From positions 21,195-85,194 of IMG/VR virus record IMGVR_UViG_3300025730_000007: a stretch of 64,000 bases of DNA; one strand, written 5' to 3'. Below are positions 8,137 through 61,373 of this stretch, one piece after another. Positions within the stretch are counted from its first letter, which is position 1. Each line of letters begins with the position of its first letter. A model generated the notes under the pieces. That model saw only the letters and a program-made list of their open reading frames with translations, was not told where the DNA came from and ran no database searches. The translations under genes and the position numbers were made by a program. The DNA comes from a virus (Duplodnaviria > Caudoviricetes).

Positions 8137-8897
8137 GGCGACCAGTCACCACCCCGAAGCCGGCCCACAAGGGGGCCAAGGTGCCCTCGCGGCCCAAGGT
8201 CTACCCCGTTGCCTACGTGCCACCCTCAAGCCTCAAGGGGGCCGATTACAACCCCCGTAACATGGACCTTCCAGAGCTTCACCGACTGGCCCAGAACATT
8301 GCCGAGTTCGGGTTCTTGGATGCGGTGAGTGCGTGCAAGGAGGACAACGAGTTGCTCGGTGGGCACCAGAGGGTGAGGGCCGCATTGATGCTCCTCAGTG
8401 GTGAGTATGCCCCGCTCAACCCGGACGGCACTGCGATGCTCGGGTGGGAGCGCCCCGAGAAGATCCCGGCCATCTTCGTCGAGGGGCTGAGTGACCGACA
8501 ACGCAAGACGGTCAACCTGTCGCTCAATCGCATCAGCGGCAATTGGGACTACGACAAGGTGGTCAGTGTGGTGAAGGACTTGCACGCTCAAGCCATGGCC
8601 GACGTGGACGAAGCCATGAAGGACGTGGACCGTCAACTGAAGGCTATCGACGCGCTCGCGGCAACCGGCTTCAGTGCGGCGGAGATCACCGACTACCTCG
8701 ACATGAGCACTGACACGGAGCGGGGCCGGGGGCCGTTGCCGGCCAAGGGGGTTCCCAAGCTCACGCTGGAGTTCACGAGCAAGGAGACGCGCGACGCGTT
8801 CAAGTCATTCCTCAGCGCGGTAGTCGCGGAGGACGAGCCGAGCGGGGACAGCCTCGCAAAGCGTCTGGGCATCGTAGTGAAGCGCAAGGGTAACTGA
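8133..8897 (+). CDS. ParB/Srx N-terminal domain protein
   Basis: YNPR, IAEFGFLDAV, LGGHQRVRA and LNRISGNWD motifs. Confidence 0.8.
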   Translation: MRRPVTTPKPAHKGAKVPSRPKVYPVAYVPPSSLKGADYNPRNMDLPELHRLAQNIAEFGFLDAVSACKEDNELLGGHQRVRAALMLLSGEYAPLNPDGTAMLGWERPEKIPAIFVEGLSDRQRKTVNLSLNRISGNWDYDKVVSVVKDLHAQAMADVDEAMKDVDRQLKAIDALAATGFSAAEITDYLDMSTDTERGRGPLPAKGVPKLTLEFTSKETRDAFKSFLSAVVAEDEPSGDSLAKRLGIVVKRKGN

Positions 8898-46865: not shown

Positions 46866-47680
46866 CTGACGGTCCCGTGCTGACCAAGGGGGGCAAGGGG
46901 CTCGGATGCGTGCGAATGTGGGAGAGGGACTCCCGCGCAAAGAAGTTCCCTGCTCACGTCCTCATCGGCTCCGGTTCGACTCCAAGCAAGTCGGACATGA
47001 CGGGGCTCATCTTCGTGCCCCCCGGCTTCACGCACCCCGACCAGGAGAATCTCCAAGAGTGTGTCGGGTGGTCGCTCTGCGGCTCAATCTATGTGCGTCA
47101 GAAGGCAATGGGGCTCAAGCCCGTAGAGCCGTCGCCGGGGGCTATCTACTATCAAGCTCGCGCCAGAGCCTACGGGTGGCGCAACATCTGGGACGGGGGG
47201 TGCAATCCGAATGAGGCATGGCAAGCCCTCAAAGAGCGCGGAGTGGTGCTCTACAACGACTGGCCCCATGACCCCAAGTCGGTGAACAAGGCATTCCCGA
47301 GCGCGTACCGGAAAGCCGCTGACCATCGGTGGCTTCAGTATCATTGGGTTCTGCGCAACGGCTCTGCCCGTACCAAGGAGGGGACGGGGCTACTCGGCAG
47401 CAAGCGTCCGCTCTCCGTGGCACTCACCATTGACCAGGGGATGGAGGACTGGCGACCAGGAATGGCACCTTGGAAGCGAACCGGCCCCATCGTTGGGGGG
47501 CATGCCGTGCTCATTGTCGGGCACGAGACACTCGCCAACGGCCAAGTCGTGTTCGTGTATTGCAACTCATGGGGCAAGGCATGGGGAGACAACGGCTTCG
47601 GGTTGCTCTCGCAAGAGGCATTCGAGTCCCCGGAGACGTCCTACATCGCAACCCCCGACATCGACGGGAGACTGGTATGA
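46862..47680 (+). CDS. papain-family (C1) cysteine peptidase
   Basis: DQ...ECVGWS (oxyanion Gln and catalytic Cys), GGHAVLIVG, NSWGKAWGDNGF. Confidence 0.85.
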   Translation: MTDGPVLTKGGKGLGCVRMWERDSRAKKFPAHVLIGSGSTPSKSDMTGLIFVPPGFTHPDQENLQECVGWSLCGSIYVRQKAMGLKPVEPSPGAIYYQARARAYGWRNIWDGGCNPNEAWQALKERGVVLYNDWPHDPKSVNKAFPSAYRKAADHRWLQYHWVLRNGSARTKEGTGLLGSKRPLSVALTIDQGMEDWRPGMAPWKRTGPIVGGHAVLIVGHETLANGQVVFVYCNSWGKAWGDNGFGLLSQEAFESPETSYIATPDIDGRLV

Positions 47681-54816: not shown

Positions 54817-55980
54817 GTCCCCCGGCCAACCGACCCACCCCCACCCCGAATCTTGCAAGAGTTGCATACCGAGCGTTTTCGCCTAGAGGCGATGACAACA
54901 TTCTTGCGTAGCCCTAGGATCGTTTTCTGGGTCTGCCCTAGGGTCGTTGGAGGTGCTCGCTTGCCGAGCCTCTGTGACCCCCTTGCGTTCCCGGCAACGG
55001 CCATCCCCCCAACGTTCTCGTTCGCCGCCAGAAAACGGACGGCATGGTATCTGCATTCGGCTCTTTCTGGCATCGCGCTTGCTACGTGCGGGTGACGCGC
55101 GTACGCGCTTGCATAAGGTGTCGCCTCGCCCCCCTGCTCGCCCCCCTGCTCGCCCCCCTGCTCGCCCCCTGCCGAAAAAAAAAAACCTCGCCGCTCAAAC
55201 CCTCGGAAACCACGGGGAATATCAGGCGAAAAAAACTTCCCGAAACTTTCCAGCGTGAATAGGCCGAGATTCTTCCGAGCATTCGTTTTGAAGCTGAAAA
55301 GCCGGCTGAAAGAGGCCGGAAAAAACCTTGGACGGTTGCAAAAGGCGCGTGCTAGGGTTGCATTGTTTGGTTAGGTTGGTTGGCCCCGTAAGGCCAACGG
55401 GTTGCAAAAACAACCCACCCGCAACGCTGCTAGCAGTAGCAAACACGCCGCAAGGCGTAACGCAAGCCACGGCCCCTAGGGGCACACTAGCAGCGGGCCA
55501 CAAGGTAAGCGCGGGCAACCCCCCGGCCTTTTACAACCTAAGCCGCAACCCCTGCTAAGCCGGGGTTGCGGGTGGCATGGCAAAGGTAGCGCCAAGCGCG
55601 CAGCAAGCCGCAAGGCAAAAGGGGCCGCACAATATGGCACGCGCCAACCCTGGCAATACAAGCCAGTTAGGGCGCAACGCGGCGCAAGGTAGCTACCCCG
55701 CGCACCATGCCTTTTCCTAGCACGGCTCGAAAGGGCAACCCTAGGAGAGACACCCAAGGCAACGGCAGGCAAGAGCCATAATCCAAGCCGTCCAATGCCC
55801 CGGTTGAACCTAGCAAGCTAGGGCCGGGGGTTGGCGCTAAGGGTAGCAAGGGGGGGCCGGCAACGGCCCCCGAAGCTCGTGGCGCATGGGCGCAACCGCA
55901 ACACGTATTGCGGCAGGGTTGGTTCGATTCCAACCACGGGCTCCAACGCAAACAACGCAACGCAAGCAACGGAGAACACA
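54817..55980. other. large non-coding region, candidate replication origin or genome terminus
   Basis: No credible ORF; tandem repeats, A-tracts, CCTAG cluster and inverted repeats. Confidence 0.55.
55125..55171 (+). repeat. 12-bp tandem repeat CTCGCCCCCCTG x3 plus one 11-bp variant
   Basis: Read directly; followed by A11 at 55175..55185. Confidence 0.9.
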
Positions 55981-56223
55981 ATGGCAGACGTAAAGTTCGG
56001 CAAGCGCAACGGGCTCCCCATGGTGCGCTTCACCATGTACTCGAACACAAGCCGGCTCCTCAGCGTGGTCGCGCTGAAGCTCGCGCGAGGGGTGCGGATC
56101 GAGAGCATCGCCAACGCGGAGACGGGCAAGCCGGTCGCCCGCGTCACGTTCGACCGACACGAGGCGCAAGCCGGCAACATGGCGAGCGTCCTGTTCAATC
56201 CGGTGAGCGACTTGTACCGCTGA
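55981..56223 (+). CDS. early hypothetical protein
   Basis: GGAG RBS before ATG 55981. Confidence 0.65.
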   Translation: MADVKFGKRNGLPMVRFTMYSNTSRLLSVVALKLARGVRIESIANAETGKPVARVTFDRHEAQAGNMASVLFNPVSDLYR

Positions 56224-56331
56224 GAGATTGCCCATTGCCTCGGCCCCCTACCCCGCAAGGGTAGGGGCTCGCACAATGCGCAATGTCGCGCAGGAAACGC
56301 AACGTGGCACGAGCCACAGAAAGAGGACCAC

Positions 56332-56853
56332 ATGGAAGCGAACGTGAACATGAACGTGGAAGCAATCGAAGCTTGGGCGAACGCACACGAGAAGCCCGTC
56401 GACGCGGTGCTCGCGGCGATGGCCGCGTACGTCGCGGGAGATCCGGACGCCCCCGCGGAGATGCGCATCCGAAGCGCATGGCGTGACATCGGATGCCGCG
56501 GGAGCGGCCCCGAGGCGTTCCGCCGCGTGCGCTATCCTAGCGGCGTGGACGGCGATGAAGGCGTCTGGCCGGACGGCGACCGCTTGCCTGCGCTGGGCGT
56601 GCGAGCTTCGGAGCGGCACGCGAGCGTGTCCACGAGCGTGCCCGTGGGCACGATCGTGGCGCAGTTCGATCGGACGCGGTTCCAGGGGCGTGGTGGGAAG
56701 TGCCGCGTCACGTTCGCGCTCGTCGGTCCGGCGGACGAAGCAGGGCGCACGCGCTTGTTCTGGCTCGAGCATCGGACGCTTCGGTCGCGTCCTGTGTACG
56801 AGATTGCGCTGCCCGACGGGACGACGACGACGTGGAAGCGCCGCGAGGCGTAA
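56332..56853 (+). CDS. early hypothetical protein
   Basis: GAGG RBS. Confidence 0.65.
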   Translation: MEANVNMNVEAIEAWANAHEKPVDAVLAAMAAYVAGDPDAPAEMRIRSAWRDIGCRGSGPEAFRRVRYPSGVDGDEGVWPDGDRLPALGVRASERHASVSTSVPVGTIVAQFDRTRFQGRGGKCRVTFALVGPADEAGRTRLFWLEHRTLRSRPVYEIALPDGTTTTWKRREA

Positions 56854-56896
56854 CGTGGGGCGGAGGACGTAAGCACCGCGAGGAAGGAGAATCCTA

Positions 56897-57031
56897 ATGA
56901 ACGTCGACGCCTTGAAGGGCGCCCCCTGCCGCTGCCGAGCCGACCCCGCAAGCGGCCCCCAAGGGGCGCAAGAGCCGCAAGCCGGCCAAGGCTCCCAAGG
57001 GCAAGCTCGCCAAGGCAAGCTGAGGCGCTAG
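56897..57031 (+). CDS. small low-complexity ORF (44 aa)
   Basis: AGGAG RBS; reading frame of the 3' part is doubtful (see findings). Confidence 0.35.
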   Translation: MNVDALKGAPCRCRADPASGPQGAQEPQAGQGSQGQARQGKLRR

Positions 57032-57124
57032 CACGTTCCACCCAAGGTCGAAACGGCCCCCCGCAAGGGGCCGTCTGCGGTTGGGGAACCGCACTGATGA
57101 TGACCAGGAACCAGGAGGATCACA

Positions 57125-57604
57125 ATGTGCAACGAGTTCAACTGCATCACCTGCATCACCCATCGCCAACTGACCGGCAAGCTCCACCCCGAGGCGGTAG
57201 CCTGCGACCTGCTATGCATCGAGGGGCCGAAAGACCCCACCATGGGCATCTGCCCCCATTGCTTCCGCCTCATGCAGTGTGGAGACGAGACTGAGGAGGA
57301 GCGTTGCTGCGACGAGTGCGCCGCGATCTACTTCGCAACCAAGCGCGGGGAATTGACGTGCAAGCGTTGCGGCACGACGCAGGAGGAGCAGGAGGAACAC
57401 GGGCTCGGTTGCCCCGAGTGCCTCTGCAAGCATGGGCGACCGGCCATTGACGACGATTGCCCCGAGTGCAACGCCGAGCAGGCTCGCCGCGAGGCATACT
57501 GCGAGGAGCATGGGCACGACCTGGAGGCGAGTGGCGACCCCGAGAACGGTAGCGAAGACCTCTGTTGCAAGAGGTGCGGGTGGTTCAAGCGAGTGTGGTT
57601 CTAG
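57125..57604 (+). CDS. multi-zinc-finger protein
   Basis: AGGAGG RBS; seven or more CxxC pairs. Confidence 0.65.
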   Translation: MCNEFNCITCITHRQLTGKLHPEAVACDLLCIEGPKDPTMGICPHCFRLMQCGDETEEERCCDECAAIYFATKRGELTCKRCGTTQEEQEEHGLGCPECLCKHGRPAIDDDCPECNAEQARREAYCEEHGHDLEASGDPENGSEDLCCKRCGWFKRVWF

Positions 57605-57625
57605 CCCCTAGCAGGGGCCGGAACC

Positions 57626-57713
57626 GGGGTTGGGCGCATGGGCGCAAGGGTGGCCGGTTCGATTCCGGTCCAACCCCCCAAGCATGGGCCGGCAACGGCT
57701 CCAACGCAGGAGG
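57626..57713 (+). ncRNA. structured leader cassette B (T-arm-like hairpin plus GCAA hairpin plus RBS)
   Basis: Outer stem GGGGTTGG/CCAACCCC; CCGG-TTCGATT-CCGG; 43-nt block shared with 58184..58226. Confidence 0.5.
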
Positions 57714-57718
57714 TCACA

Positions 57719-58099
57719 ATGGGTCAGCGAATCAGTGGTAACTACTTCACCGAGCCAACCGAGCAGGGGGGCGAGTGGGAGTTGGTCTGCGGTACGGTCG
57801 AGAACGCGCTCCCCACGGGGGAGTTCGTGGTCATCGACGATGCGGTCTGCGCCATTCTGCACGTCGAGGGAGAGATTGCTTCCTACGACATCGCCGTCCA
57901 GGGGCGATACGTCGAGAGGCCCGACACTTGCGTGCATTGCGGAGCAGAGATTGACTGGACTCAGCGCTACAGTGCCTCGCGCGACACCATCTACAGCATC
58001 GGGGAATGCGAGTGCGGGACGTGCGGGGGCGACGAGCCGTACGCATGGCGCTACACCGAGGGAACGGTCGAGTACGACGAAGACGGTTGCTTCTCCTGA
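57719..58099 (+). CDS. acidic Cys-containing hypothetical protein
   Basis: AGGAGG RBS. Confidence 0.65.
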   Translation: MGQRISGNYFTEPTEQGGEWELVCGTVENALPTGEFVVIDDAVCAILHVEGEIASYDIAVQGRYVERPDTCVHCGAEIDWTQRYSASRDTIYSIGECECGTCGGDEPYAWRYTEGTVEYDEDGCFS

Positions 58100-58121
58100 G
58101 CGGCAACGCAAGGCGGGAGCA

Positions 58122-58226
58122 GGGGTTGGGCGCAAGGGGCGCAACCGCAACACGTATTGCGGCAGGGTGGTTCGACTCCACCGCAACCCCCCAAGCATGG
58201 GCCGGCAACGGCCCCAACGCAGGAGG
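58122..58226 (+). ncRNA. structured leader cassette C
   Basis: GGGGTTG/CAACCCC outer stem, 18-bp motif, GGTGG-TTCGACT-CCACC, GGGCCG-GCAA-CGGCCC. Confidence 0.5.
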
Positions 58227-58230
58227 GAAC

Positions 58231-58542
58231 ATGGAACGAGCAAAGACTGCGAAGGAAGTCGTGCGCCGACTGGCCGAGTGGTCGGTGGCACAAGGGGGGT
58301 GGAACTACCCCCCTCACACCCCGAAGCTCTATGAGGCTCTCGGCATCCCGCACTCCAAGAACAAGGTCTGGGCCGGGTTGTTCGGGTGCTTCTACTCGGA
58401 GGTAGCGGGGGCGACCATTCGCGTATACGCGAGCAACCAGAAGCGCCGACTCCACCGCGTGTTCATCATCTGCCCCGAGTGTGGGGAGGAGAAGGACGCT
58501 GGACACTTCAATCAGCACTCATGCGCAACGAGGAAGGACTGA
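58231..58542 (+). CDS. hypothetical protein with C-terminal C2H2-like motif
   Basis: AGGAGG RBS; CPEC..GHFNQHSC. Confidence 0.65.
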   Translation: MERAKTAKEVVRRLAEWSVAQGGWNYPPHTPKLYEALGIPHSKNKVWAGLFGCFYSEVAGATIRVYASNQKRRLHRVFIICPECGEEKDAGHFNQHSCATRKD

Positions 58543-58545
58543 GCC

Positions 58546-58815
58546 ATGAAAACTGCAAAGAGCAAGAAGTCCAGTCTCCCCCGGCCCCCCAAGGGCAAGG
58601 CGAAGGAGGCTTGGGATGCGGGTGTCGACTATGCCCACGACCTCATTGCGTGGCACCCCGACTCGAACGAATACTCGCTTGTGAGCAAGCTCATGGGCGG
58701 AGTCCTCGACCTCTGCGGCGGAGACGAGTATGCCGCTGATTGGGCGTTCGACGGCGGGAAGTCCGTCATCCACGCTCACTTCGCCGCAAAGGAAGCGCTC
58801 AATGAACTCGGGTGA
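58546..58815 (+). CDS. hypothetical protein
   Basis: GAGGA RBS. Confidence 0.6.
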   Translation: MKTAKSKKSSLPRPPKGKAKEAWDAGVDYAHDLIAWHPDSNEYSLVSKLMGGVLDLCGGDEYAADWAFDGGKSVIHAHFAAKEALNELG

Positions 58816-59053
58816 CAAGGTGGTTCTGGGCAAGGGGTGCAAGGGCATCGGGCTTCGCAAGGGGCAAGTGCTCAAGGTGCTCAAGCTGGTCGGCATTGAC
58901 CAGGGTGGCACGACCATTCTGTTCGAGATGGTTCCGCAGGGGCGCATCCGCCAACTCTACAACCGCAGGACTCCCCCCACGGTCGCCAACGCAACCTCGT
59001 TGTGGCTCCACAATGGCGACCCCACCTTGCGCGTTCTGGCGCACGTCATCTGA
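58802..59053 (+). CDS. hypothetical protein (SH3/KOW-like start)
   Basis: GDKVVLGKG; tiled ORF. Confidence 0.5.
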   Translation: MNSGDKVVLGKGCKGIGLRKGQVLKVLKLVGIDQGGTTILFEMVPQGRIRQLYNRRTPPTVANATSLWLHNGDPTLRVLAHVI

Positions 59054-59114
59054 GCCGTTGCACCGCAACACGTATTGCGGCATAAGGGCAAGGGGCCGAC
59101 CCCAAGTTCGGCCC

Positions 59115-59178
59115 CACAAGCAAGCGCGCGAGACGGTATTCCCCACCCCCTCCTGGCCGTCTCGCGCGCTTGCTTGTG
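59115..59178. repeat. 22-bp perfect inverted repeat with 20-nt spacer
   Basis: CACAAGCAAGCGCGCGAGACGG (59115..59136) and CCGTCTCGCGCGCTTGCTTGTG (59157..59178). Confidence 0.92.
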
Positions 59179-59231
59179 CGGTAGTCGCACAAGCCAACGG
59201 GGCAGAAGTCCCCTTCACCAAGGAGTGGCAG

Positions 59232-61373
59232 ATGACCACTGAGACACCGACTAGGGCGGAGCTTCGACGAAAGGCGAAGCAAGCCCTCAATCCCGAAACA
59301 ATCCTCCAGGGTGCCAACCCGGAGCAAGCGGTCGCCATCCAGCACGGCGAGGGGCCGCTTGGCGTGTTCGCAGGGGCCGGAAGTGGCAAGACCCGCGTGC
59401 TCTGCGCCAGGATGGCGTTCCTGGTCAGTATGGGCGCCAAGCCCGAACGCATCCTCGCCGTGACGTTCTCCAAGAAAGCCGCTGTCGAGATGGAGGAGCG
59501 CGCGCGGAAGATGGGAGTGCTCGCCGCCCGAGTCGGCACTTGGCACTCCCTCGCGTTGCAGATTCTCCGCGAGGAGCACGCTATCGACGAGTGGGCAATC
59601 GACGACAAGGACCGCGCCAAGGTGATCCTCAAGGCCAACGTGCTCGGGTACAAGGGCATGAATTGGCGGGACGCCGACATCGGTGTGGTGTCGGGCTACA
59701 TCTCATTCTGCAAGTCGCAACTCTGGGGGCCGGAGAGCGACGGAGCGCGCGAGTATGCCAAGGGCGAGCGCCGGCTCGTCGAGGCATACCAACGTTACGA
59801 GGCGGAGCTTCTCGACAACCGGCTCCTCACGTTCGATTGCATGCTCTGCAAAGCGGTTGACCTCCTGCGCGTCGAGGACACTCGCCTTCGTTGGGCCGCT
59901 CGCTGGGACTACGTGCTTCAGGATGAGGCGCAGGACGCCAACCCCGCGCAGATGGCAATCGCCGAAGCGCTTGCCCGCGACCACCGGAACTACATGGTAG
60001 TCGGCGACCCGGCGCAGAGCATCTACGGATGGCGAGGCTCCAAGCCCGAGTACGTCATGGAGTTCGAGAAGTCGTGGCCGGGGGCCAAGGTGGTGACGAT
60101 GAATCGGAACTACCGTTGCGGCTCTGCCGTGGTTGCCGTCGCAAACAAGGCAATCAGTCCCGCCGCAATGCGCCTCCCCGCCGACCTCGTGGCCGAGGGT
60201 GGTTGGCAGGGTGGCGTGAGCTTCTGGCGCGAGGCGGACCTCGACGGCGAGGCAACGCGTATCGCCAGCATCGTGCAGGAGAACGCGAGGGCCGGCCAAC
60301 CGTACGAGGCTCACACCGTTCTCTTCCGCACTAACGCTCAGTCCCGCGCGTTGGAAGAGGCGTTCCTGGCCGAGAAGATCCCCTATGTGGTTGTCGGGGG
60401 AACGAGCTTCTACGAGCGCAAGGAGGTCAAGGACTTGCTTGCCTACCTCCGCACGGCAATCGGGCGCGAGTTGGAGCAGAACGTGCGTCGCTGCGTCAAT
60501 GCCCCCTTCCGCTACATCGGCGCAGTCACGGTCGACAAGCTCCTTAGCGCGTTGGGGGCTCGCCACGGAGACCTCGTGGGGGCCATTGGAGACATCAGCG
60601 GCGAACTCCAGCGTAGGCAAGTGTCCAGCCTGACTGACTGGCTCGATGCGGTCGGCAACGTGGACCAGGGCGCCAAGCGGCTCGCCGCACTCACCGACAA
60701 TCGCACTGACACCGACCACGTTGGAACGGTGCTCGACGCGCTCGTGCGTGAGGTCGGATATGTCGAGTGGCTCAAGCGCGACCAGGGTGAAGAGGGGCTT
60801 GATAGCTCCCACGTTGCCAACGTGAAGGAGCTTGTGCGGGTTGCCTCCAGGTTCGCTACGGTGGAGTCGTTCCTCGACTTCATCGACGAGACAATCGCCA
60901 AGTCCAAGGAAGCCAAGCAAGGGGCCGGTGAGGGGCGCGTGCTACTGATGAGCATCCACCGGAGCAAGGGGTTGGAGTGGCCGTTCGTGTTCGTGTGCGG
61001 TTGCTCCGAGGGTATCCTCCCCCACCCTCGCGGGGATGCCGAGGAGGAGCGCCGGTTGTTCTACGTGGCAGTCACTCGCGCGGCTCAACACGCGTACCTG
61101 ACCAGTCCAGCATCGTTGGCATTGAGGGCCGGCGTCAAAGCGGTAGGTCCGTCGCAGTTCGTCGAGGAAGTCATGGACCTTCTCGCTGTCGGGGAGTTCG
61201 AAGTTCGCCGCTCAGGTGGTTGCCGGCAATGCCCCCAAGCCCCCTCGCAAGGGGCGCAAGGTGGCTCCCAAGCCGGCCAAGGCACCCCCGGCCCCCAAGC
61301 CGGCCCCCGAGGCTCCCAAGGGGGACTTGATGGGCCGCATCTTTGCAGCGGCAAAGGGGGTCAAGAGGAATGA
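59232..61373 (+). CDS. uvrD: UvrD/PcrA-like superfamily 1 helicase
   Basis: AGAGSGKT, VTFSKKAA, TWHS, DEAQD, VGDPAQSIYGWRG, NYR, LFRTN, SIHRSKGLEW and EERRLFYVAVTRA motifs. Confidence 0.93.
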   Translation: MTTETPTRAELRRKAKQALNPETILQGANPEQAVAIQHGEGPLGVFAGAGSGKTRVLCARMAFLVSMGAKPERILAVTFSKKAAVEMEERARKMGVLAARVGTWHSLALQILREEHAIDEWAIDDKDRAKVILKANVLGYKGMNWRDADIGVVSGYISFCKSQLWGPESDGAREYAKGERRLVEAYQRYEAELLDNRLLTFDCMLCKAVDLLRVEDTRLRWAARWDYVLQDEAQDANPAQMAIAEALARDHRNYMVVGDPAQSIYGWRGSKPEYVMEFEKSWPGAKVVTMNRNYRCGSAVVAVANKAISPAAMRLPADLVAEGGWQGGVSFWREADLDGEATRIASIVQENARAGQPYEAHTVLFRTNAQSRALEEAFLAEKIPYVVVGGTSFYERKEVKDLLAYLRTAIGRELEQNVRRCVNAPFRYIGAVTVDKLLSALGARHGDLVGAIGDISGELQRRQVSSLTDWLDAVGNVDQGAKRLAALTDNRTDTDHVGTVLDALVREVGYVEWLKRDQGEEGLDSSHVANVKELVRVASRFATVESFLDFIDETIAKSKEAKQGAGEGRVLLMSIHRSKGLEWPFVFVCGCSEGILPHPRGDAEEERRLFYVAVTRAAQHAYLTSPASLALRAGVKAVGPSQFVEEVMDLLAVGEFEVRRSGGCRQCPQAPSQGAQGGSQAGQGTPGPQAGPRGSQGGLDGPHLCSGKGGQEE

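Follow-up and report, generated by a model that had tools for sequence, protein, structure and literature searches.

A conserved CCA-bearing tRNA-like element in three gene leaders of a bacteriophage, a possible RNase P punctuation signal

A transfer RNA (tRNA)-like element with an encoded 3' CCA stands ahead of three small genes in a 64,000-nucleotide (nt) stretch of IMG/VR virus record IMGVR_UViG_3300025730_000007 (Duplodnaviria; Caudoviricetes). This stretch, hereafter the window, comprises bases 21195-85194 of the 85,194-base-pair (bp) record, which is rated complete; near-identical contigs of the phage were found in activated-sludge, wastewater and digester samples. The three paralogous copies, A (55874-55945), B (57626-57680) and C (58122-58193), lie on the plus strand, are all intergenic and have the same orientation as the genes. 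The element is real and structurally conserved. As to its function, we infer from the sequence that the copies may be 'punctuation' signals for ribonuclease P (RNase P), interchangeable with a candidate hammerhead ribozyme in a neighbouring leader, and we give this reading about an even chance of being correct.

The minimum-energy fold of A is a cloverleaf. Its acceptor helix joins 55875-55881 with 55935-55941 and is lengthened by A55874, at position N-1, which pairs with U55942; within it lie a D-like hairpin (55882-55893), an 18-nt arm (55896-55913) and a T arm (55918-55934), and CCA follows at 55943-55945. Copy C is also a cloverleaf, in which G58122 (position -1) pairs with C58190, the acceptor helix (58123-58129 with 58183-58189) has a G.G mismatch as its innermost pair, and the D-like hairpin, 18-nt arm, T arm and CCA occupy 58130-58142, 58145-58162, 58166-58182 and 58191-58193. 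Copy B is a three-way junction with no third arm, composed of the -1 pair G57626 with C57677, the acceptor helix 57627-57633 with 57670-57676, a D-like hairpin (57634-57645), a T arm (57653-57669) and CCA (57678-57680). All three copies share a D-like hairpin of 4 bp whose loop contains GG, together with a 5-bp T stem and a UUCGAYU T loop closed by a G-C pair. N-1 pairs with N73 in every copy (A:U in A, G:C in B and C), which gives an acceptor helix of 8 bp. Canonical tRNA numbering fits: 7 acceptor pairs, 5 T-stem pairs, the loop U54-U55-C56-G57-A58-Y59-U60 with G53-C61 closing it, a discriminator and CCA.

Part of this architecture had been described in an original prediction made from the same stretch. 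The T hairpins that it listed are present as described (GGTTGG-TTCGATT-CCAACC at 55917-55935, GGCCGG-TTCGATT-CCGGTC at 57652-57670 and GGTGG-TTCGACT-CCACC at 58166-58182), as is the GCGC-(ATGG/AAGGG)-GCGC hairpin ahead of each. It had restricted an enclosing stem to B and C; GGGGTTG/CAACCCC does surround both, but A is enclosed too, by AGCTCGTG/CACGGGCT, a stem unlike that of B and C in sequence. Its statement that no anticodon arm is evident holds for B and fails for A and C, where a 6-bp arm carries a 6-nt loop, and its statement that a CCA end is lacking proved incorrect for every copy. An invariant CCAA directly follows the acceptor helix in A, B and C even though the helix sequence of A differs, having 1/7 pairs in common with B and C, and CCA is among the invariant columns of the three-copy alignment. 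The near-identical block that had been noted behind B and C was found as well; it is 63 nt long and 87% identical, and holds a GCAA hairpin and AGGAGG. This hairpin, of 6 bp on the plus strand, lies between the CCA of B and the AGGAGG of a gene of 126 amino acids (aa) at 57686-57701, and between the CCA of C and the AGGAGG of a 103-aa gene at 58199-58214; in strain variants the latter retains its stem with ACAA as its loop. A GCAA-loop hairpin of 8 bp (55852-55871, plus strand) stands 2 nt upstream of A.

Conservation of the fold was examined in several ways. RNAfold gave a four-arm cloverleaf as the minimum-energy structure of A and C and a three-arm structure for B, with modest z-scores (-1.0 to -2.3) that are usual for tRNA-sized RNA in G+C-rich sequence. 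Applied to the three copies, RNAalifold returned the 8-bp acceptor helix, the 4-bp D-like stem, the third arm and the 5-bp T stem. Pairs were also counted on the three-copy alignment with our own structure string, independently of RNAalifold: 96.8% of pair cells were paired, and 8 pairs (6 of the 7 acceptor pairs and 2 T-stem pairs) had changed on both sides with pairing kept. None of 500 shuffles was as good, and sliding the partner by 1-3 columns lowered the value to 38-52%. These compensatory changes between the three paralogues, together with the same cloverleaf from RNAalifold, bear out the covarying stems of the original prediction.

The T-loop motif is similarly concentrated. GGTTCGAYTCC occurs exactly four times in the window, three of them at A, B and C, and with at most one mismatch it has 9 matches where 3.0 are expected, a number that 0 of 100 shuffles reached. 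A covariance model of the element, R1, found exactly three copies in the 85-kilobase (kb) genome (C 96.6, A 93.1 and B 68.1 bits; next match 25.9), all of them within a cluster of small genes. The fourth exact occurrence of the motif, GGTTCGACTCC at 46973, lies within a gene, has no stems and is not matched by R1, and was rejected as a further copy.

The cloverleaf fold, the T loop and CCA could be taken as signs of genuine, if unusual, decoding tRNA genes of Rfam families RF00005/RF01852: A, B and C all have a 7-bp acceptor, a 5-bp T stem, a 7-nt UUCRANY loop and G53-C61, with the one G.G in C. This explanation is effectively refuted. ARAGORN finds 0 tRNA genes, no Rfam family matches at its gathering score (the best reaches 24.5 bits against 47), the D loop has just 4-5 nt, B is without an anticodon arm, and in A and C the corresponding arm is not the 5-bp stem and 7-nt loop with U33 of a tRNA: its loop of 6 nt, CACGTA, contains no U33, and the arm is identical to 29 other copies of a repeat. 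The best of these sub-threshold Rfam matches is to tRNA-Sec, on the same strand (A 21.4, B 22.7, C 24.5 bits against a cut-off of 47), because the -1:73 pair brings the helix to 13 stacked layers as in tRNA-Sec. The exclusion of ordinary tRNAs that the original prediction had called for therefore succeeds, with tRNA-clan scores far below threshold. Three further identities were rejected. For the tRNA-like domain of transfer-messenger RNA (tmRNA), ARAGORN finds no tmRNA, and the alanine identity pair G3:U70 is replaced by U.G in A and by G-C in the other two copies. For a Y RNA (YrlA), the 85-kb genome has no TROVE match and the elements have no Rfam match. An attP-type tRNA fragment, which the original prediction had listed among the outcomes that would refute it, does not account for the presence of both acceptor halves, and no tyrosine integrase or serine recombinase was found.

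The third arm of A and C, CCGCAA-CACGTA-TTGCGG, lies after the D-like hairpin and ahead of the T arm; it has a stem of 6 bp and a loop of 6 nt and gives no evidence of decoding. The same sequence recurs as an invariant 18-nt near-palindrome, CCGCAACACGTATTGCGG, in 31 exact copies across the genome, 24 of which are in the window (2352-63419; for example 12321, 28062, 55896 and 58145), with none at 1-3 mismatches. The majority are found in short gaps that separate a stop codon from the following ribosome-binding site, most are co-oriented with the genes, and the flanks are R at -1 and Y at +1; the 29 outside A and C occupy ordinary intergenic and genic sites. Related viral contigs have the 18-mer or full palindromes with CACGTG or TACGTA centres. 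In cellular genomes the 18-mer gave 13 single matches, a number estimated to be about that expected by chance, and no clue to a host or prophage. The repeat may serve as an operator- or stoperator-like site, as a promoter, as a site in RNA or as a mobile insertion unit. Within the modelled fold, the arm takes the position of a tRNA anticodon arm, where an extra hairpin would leave the acceptor/T helix undisturbed. Since B lacks it, the arm is dispensable.

Strain variants, read from contigs of other public runs on the region (contig depth 3-7), bear on the tertiary fold. In run X4, the D loop of element A has changed from ATGG to AAGGG and T-loop position 59 from T to C, with the A-specific acceptor and T stems the same; in run X6, element C reads AAGGT in place of AAGGG in the D loop, and T in place of C at position 59. 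In the 5 observed states, G as fifth D-loop base always accompanies C59 and its absence accompanies U59. The states are few and exchange between copies is possible, so that the coupling is a hint of a contact between D loop and T loop, that is, of a real elbow. The unchanged T stem of the X4 variant argues against a single conversion tract, which would have altered the T stem too. The original prediction had spoken of a mimic of the tRNA elbow. The conserved tRNA-like fold, GG in the D-like loop and the coupled loop variants speak for that description; it is also too narrow, as the copies have the whole acceptor/T minihelix and CCA. Apparent loose ends at 55855-55915 and 58138-58164 were rejected as strain differences, being cross-matches to other copies of the 18-mer and the GCAA hairpin (e.g. 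a minus-strand copy near 8744).

The placement of the elements relative to genes is regular. A precedes an 80-aa gene (55981-56223), B the 126-aa gene (57719-58099, ATG at 57719) and C the 103-aa gene (58231-58542, ATG at 58231), with 35, 38 and 37 nt, respectively, between CCA and the next ATG; the distance from the preceding stop codon is 21 nt for B and 22 nt for C. Gene calls on independent near-identical contigs match these short gene forms (80, 126, 103 aa etc.) exactly, and elements A, B and C therefore do not lie inside genes. Their location within extended reading frames was rejected on the same ground, as the called short forms have strong ribosome-binding sites, and also because B and C differ by 20 nt, which is not a multiple of three. 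The leaders are free of stop codons because they are T-poor.

We propose that the cluster yields a polycistronic transcript in which A, B and C would each offer a handle for RNase P. Bacterial RNase P reads the acceptor/T helix, the elbow and the 3' NCCA, and it cuts non-tRNA phage RNAs and operon mRNAs (PMC11143913). At the level of secondary structure, each copy presents a 12-bp coaxial helix (13 layers with -1:73) and a 3' NCCA. The handle would consist of this coaxial helix of 7+5 bp, with an N-1:N73 pair as in tRNA-His, a T loop docked on the GG-bearing D-like loop to form an elbow, and the encoded NCCA. The predicted cut by host RNase P falls on the 5' edge, at or next to the bonds between 55873 and 55874, 57625 and 57626, and 58121 and 58122, and would separate the cistrons. 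The upstream fragment would then end shortly after a hairpin, the one at 55852-55871 in the case of A and, in the case of B, CCCCT-AGC-AGGGG at 57605-57617 on the plus strand. The latter directly follows the stop codon of a 159-aa gene, 8 nt before B, and would be the 3'-end structure of that fragment after the cut. The downstream message would start with a very stable tRNA-like fold and a base-paired 5' end; alternatively, host tRNA 3'-end enzymes might trim it to the CCA, leaving a 35-38-nt leader with a GCAA hairpin and the ribosome-binding site. We infer transcription, each of these cleavages and any resulting effect on message stability or translation; indirect support for a processing role comes from the encoded CCA, the 12/13-layer acceptor/T helix and the hammerhead motif in an equivalent neighbouring leader.

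That motif is a candidate type II hammerhead ribozyme at 57046-57105, on the plus strand, in the leader of the 159-aa gene and between the genes bearing A and B. A relaxed Rfam scan matched it over 57046-57108 and scored it at 33.3 bits for RF02276 (gathering score 37), with E values of 3e-4 for the region, 0.0066 for the window with all families and 2e-6 for the genome with RF02276 alone. Its core is complete, with CTGATGA at 57094-57100, GAAA at 57050-53, the pair A15.1-U16.1 (A57053-T57074), C57075 as C17 and a GUC triplet. The RNAfold minimum-energy structure contains stem III (57054-57073, 8 bp), stem I (57076-57093, 7 bp) and stem II (GGTC/GACC, 4 bp), of which I and III have closing loops and II is open, as type II requires. 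The predicted cut, between 57075 and 57076, would leave a 49-nt leader starting with the stem I hairpin. The ribozyme would thus do unaided the job that the tRNA-like elements would leave to RNase P, and the two could be interchangeable punctuation marks; together they place a device associated with RNA cleavage in 4 of the 6 gaps of the cluster. Hammerheads occur between genes of phage and prophage operons, and Perreault et al. (2011; PMC3088659) showed, both in vitro and in E. coli, cleavage of the polycistronic RNA by several hammerheads of a single phage-like operon.

A number of observations weigh against RNase P punctuation. The D arm of the elements is greatly reduced in size compared with every model substrate of RNase P. 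No homologue of the elements was found outside this phage lineage, and for this reason the covariation is confined to three paralogues of one lineage; these are, moreover, reticulate in their similarity, C being a mosaic whose outer parts are common with B and whose inner 32 nt are common with A. The contigs that carry the cluster proteins are 99.9-100% identical and so add no variation to the covariation. The hammerhead candidate falls 3.7 bits under the Rfam gathering score and has one extra U (57101) between A9 and G10.1, beside the core. Most type II hammerheads have a pseudoknot of at least 4 bp in which loop I pairs with the tail behind stem II (PMC3088659), and the candidate has no clear one: loop I is GGGG, the 3' tail offers only 2-nt CC runs, and CCC is found instead upstream of stem II. 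The leaders of a 173-aa gene and a 41-aa gene contain no such module, and punctuation of the cluster would accordingly not be systematic. RNA-library contigs hold parts of the region and do not convincingly cover B and C; these libraries (X5 and X6) are known as assembled contigs, which show neither transcription nor ends, and the parts they leave uncovered carry no meaning.

The same leaders can be read without any cleavage, as structures of the 5' untranslated region that stabilise the message or tune its translation by blocking 5'-end-dependent decay, by providing ribosome standby or by binding a protein. A fixed 35-38 nt to the start codon would suit such a role, as would the conserved hairpin and ribosome-binding block behind B and C. 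A generic stabiliser, on the other hand, has no need of CCA after the helix, of a T loop or of a length of 12/13 layers, and the neighbouring leader has a self-cleaving motif instead; we think this explanation very unlikely.

A different possibility, unlikely but worth stating, is that the product of the cut is the element itself, freed by RNase P and 3' trimming as a CCA-ending mini-tRNA of 55-72 nt that works in trans. Such RNAs might act as decoys or sponges, either for host enzymes that bind tRNA or for defences that target it, and B and C could also be aminoacylated acceptor helices. Histidyl-tRNA synthetase (HisRS) charges micro-helices with G-1:C73, and this histidine identity pair is present in the 8-bp helix of B and C; A has A-1:U73 instead, so that the copies share no identity. 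The encoded CCA, the presence of three copies and a loop-loop association maintained in strain variants also suit a trans-acting product. So does the precedent of bacterial and phage Y RNAs, whose tRNA-like modules can be cut by RNase P and can gain CCA and tRNA modifications (PMC4201824), but the 85-kb genome of this phage has no Ro60, RtcB or CCA-adding enzyme. The elements have no promoter or terminator of their own, and nothing sets this proposal apart from punctuation, which begins with the same cut. In a more specific version, which we consider distinctly improbable, host tRNA-end enzymes would excise the anticodon-less, CCA-ending mini-tRNAs as the active agents: B and C could be charged by HisRS or could, early in infection, soak up host factors that bind tRNA (a synthetase, enzymes of tRNA modification or defence nucleases directed at tRNA), and A and C would be scaffolds showing the 18-nt hairpin as RNA at the position of the anticodon arm.

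Recombinant contigs bring up a further explanation. In Logan contig L073 (1041 nt; positions 1-200), A is joined through a CGCAA microhomology to the block normally found behind C. The five genes in between are absent, the hairpin loop is ACAA in place of GCAA, and A stands directly ahead of the 103-aa gene with a C-type hairpin and ribosome-binding block, an arrangement that fits a leader module moving together with gene starts. In run X7, a DNA contig has 55520 joined directly to 56223, indicating a strain without 55521-56222, a segment that includes some of the long leader as well as A and the 80-aa gene. These deletions, the mosaic relationship of the copies, the confinement of the family to one lineage and the status of the 173-aa gene as a cassette common to unrelated Mu-like phages would all fit decaying tRNA remnants that have no RNA function and persist as short homology patches for the swap or deletion of gene cassettes. 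Neutral decay would hardly leave T loop, GG and CCA intact in 3 of 3 copies with coordinated variants, nor 6 of 7 acceptor pairs that differ between A and B/C and all still pair, and there is no integrase or serine recombinase among the genes found that would explain attP-type fragments. We regard this explanation as unlikely.

To date, this family is known only from a single phage lineage. A search of IMG/VR and JGI metagenomes for the D-hairpin plus T-loop pattern returned only true tRNAs, isoleucyl-tRNA synthetase coding sequence and variable arms. The covariance-model search proposed with the original prediction succeeded within the genome and gave no homologue in five related viral records, where R1 had only repeat-driven partial matches of at most 24 bits. 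One of these resembled a D hairpin, repeat and hairpin in succession and was rejected because it has no acceptor stem. A blastn search of the region against phages returned nothing. The 126-, 103-, 80- and 159-aa proteins are confined to this lineage, and for the UvrD-like helicase encoded beyond the cluster IMG/VR yielded no close relative, while identity in cultured phages did not exceed 34%. In the literature we found no description of tRNA-like, anticodon-less, CCA-bearing elements in phage mRNA leaders.

The cluster itself comprises, besides the 80-, 126- and 103-aa genes, the 173-aa gene (56332-56853), the Cys-rich 159-aa gene (57125-57604) and an 89-aa gene (58546-58815); all are on the plus strand and none has a family match. 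On its 5' side are baseplate genes, followed by replication genes (ResIII and DnaB-type helicases, a DnaG-type primase) and a helix-turn-helix protein, and on its 3' side a UvrD-type helicase followed by a sigma-70 region 2 protein. From this gene order and layout, 'early genes' would be a reasonable designation for the cluster. A 1.1-kb stretch without genes (54817-55980), regarded as regulatory, precedes it. The part at 54817-55880 has a 12-nt repeat in four tandem copies (55125-55169), A tracts, recurring CCCTAGGRTCGTT boxes and a T-poor stretch with abundant GCAA hairpins, and an RNA-library contig spans 55316-55847 in this gene-free region. Directly after the stop codon of the 80-aa gene, a strong hairpin at 56240-56272, CCCCTACCCC-GCAA-GGGTAGGGG, has no T tract and may serve as 3'-end protection or as a terminator without a U tail. 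The 173-aa gene and its leader (56300-56853; contigs L074, L078 and L079) form the cassette that is also found in unrelated Mu-portal (Mu-like) phages; its own short leader has a GTGGC-ACGA-GCCAC hairpin and a ribosome-binding site. The Mu-portal phages sharing it have neither the 18-mer nor the tRNA-like elements, and carry tandem CGTAACGTTACG palindromes upstream of the gene. At the other end of the cluster (58812-59232), the long 853-aa frame of the UvrD-like helicase is probably too long: in gene calls on identical contigs the helicase begins near 59232 and is preceded by a gene of 77-83 aa and by an 18-mer copy at 59063.

By analogy, A, B and C are conceptually closest to the t-elements of mitochondria (PMC1920247) and to the known non-tRNA substrates of RNase P. 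Like the phage elements, t-elements and organellar tRNA punctuation (Forner et al. 2007, PMC1920247) place tRNA-like acceptor/T structures in mRNAs beside coding regions; in plant mitochondria, t-elements define mRNA ends and are thought to be read by tRNA-end enzymes. They differ in their mitochondrial setting, in involving protein-only or organellar RNase P together with RNase Z, and in having mapped transcript ends, whereas the elements described here belong to a bacterial phage, encode CCA (an RNase Z anti-determinant) and are known from sequence alone. The non-tRNA substrates of bacterial RNase P (the P1/P7 C4 antisense RNA precursor, phi80 M3 RNA, operon mRNAs and T4 gene 32 mRNA; PMC11143913) likewise have an acceptor-like helix and often a 3' CCA. 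Those are mostly simple helices or transient structures; in the phage elements the helix comes with T and D-like arms on a four- or three-way junction, and this structure occurs three times in one cluster.

Phage and prophage hammerheads (PMC3088659; RF02276) resemble the elements in occupying the short intervals that separate small phage genes, with several of them in some operons, where they are presumed to cut polycistronic RNA; the tRNA-like elements have no ribozyme core and would need a host enzyme. YrlA Y RNAs (Chen et al. 2014, PMC4201824) share a tRNA mimic of T arm and D arm that does not decode, and that of M. smegmatis is cut by RNase P and gets CCA, but these RNAs lie beside Ro60/Rsr and have a Ro-binding stem, and this phage is without a TROVE-domain gene. 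With tRNA, tRNA-His and tRNA-Sec (CL00001) the elements share the 7-bp acceptor, the 5-bp T stem, the UUCGAYU loop, the discriminator and CCA, and in particular the -1:73 pair with tRNA-His and the 13 layers with tRNA-Sec; they differ from tRNA in the missing anticodon loop, the D loop of 4-5 nt, the at most 1 nt between acceptor and D stem, and scores far below threshold. In MALAT1 mascRNA and the TMER heads of gammaherpesvirus 68, a tRNA-like fold within a longer transcript is a handle for RNase P or RNase Z, with hairpins just downstream. There, the setting is the eukaryotic nucleus and CCA is added after cleavage.

The purpose of intergenic hammerheads in phages has been an open question since 2011. 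That neighbouring leaders have either a candidate self-cutting ribozyme or a putative handle for host tRNA enzymes suggests that the cut itself is the function, and the cluster may be regarded as a natural swap experiment between the two. If RNase P punctuation is correct, then 'tRNA punctuation', a hallmark of mitochondria, would extend to bacteriophage messages, and an acceptor/T helix with a 4-nt D loop and an optional third arm would be a minimal natural RNase P substrate. Elements of this kind are missed by gene finders and tRNA finders alike and may be common in phage dark matter.

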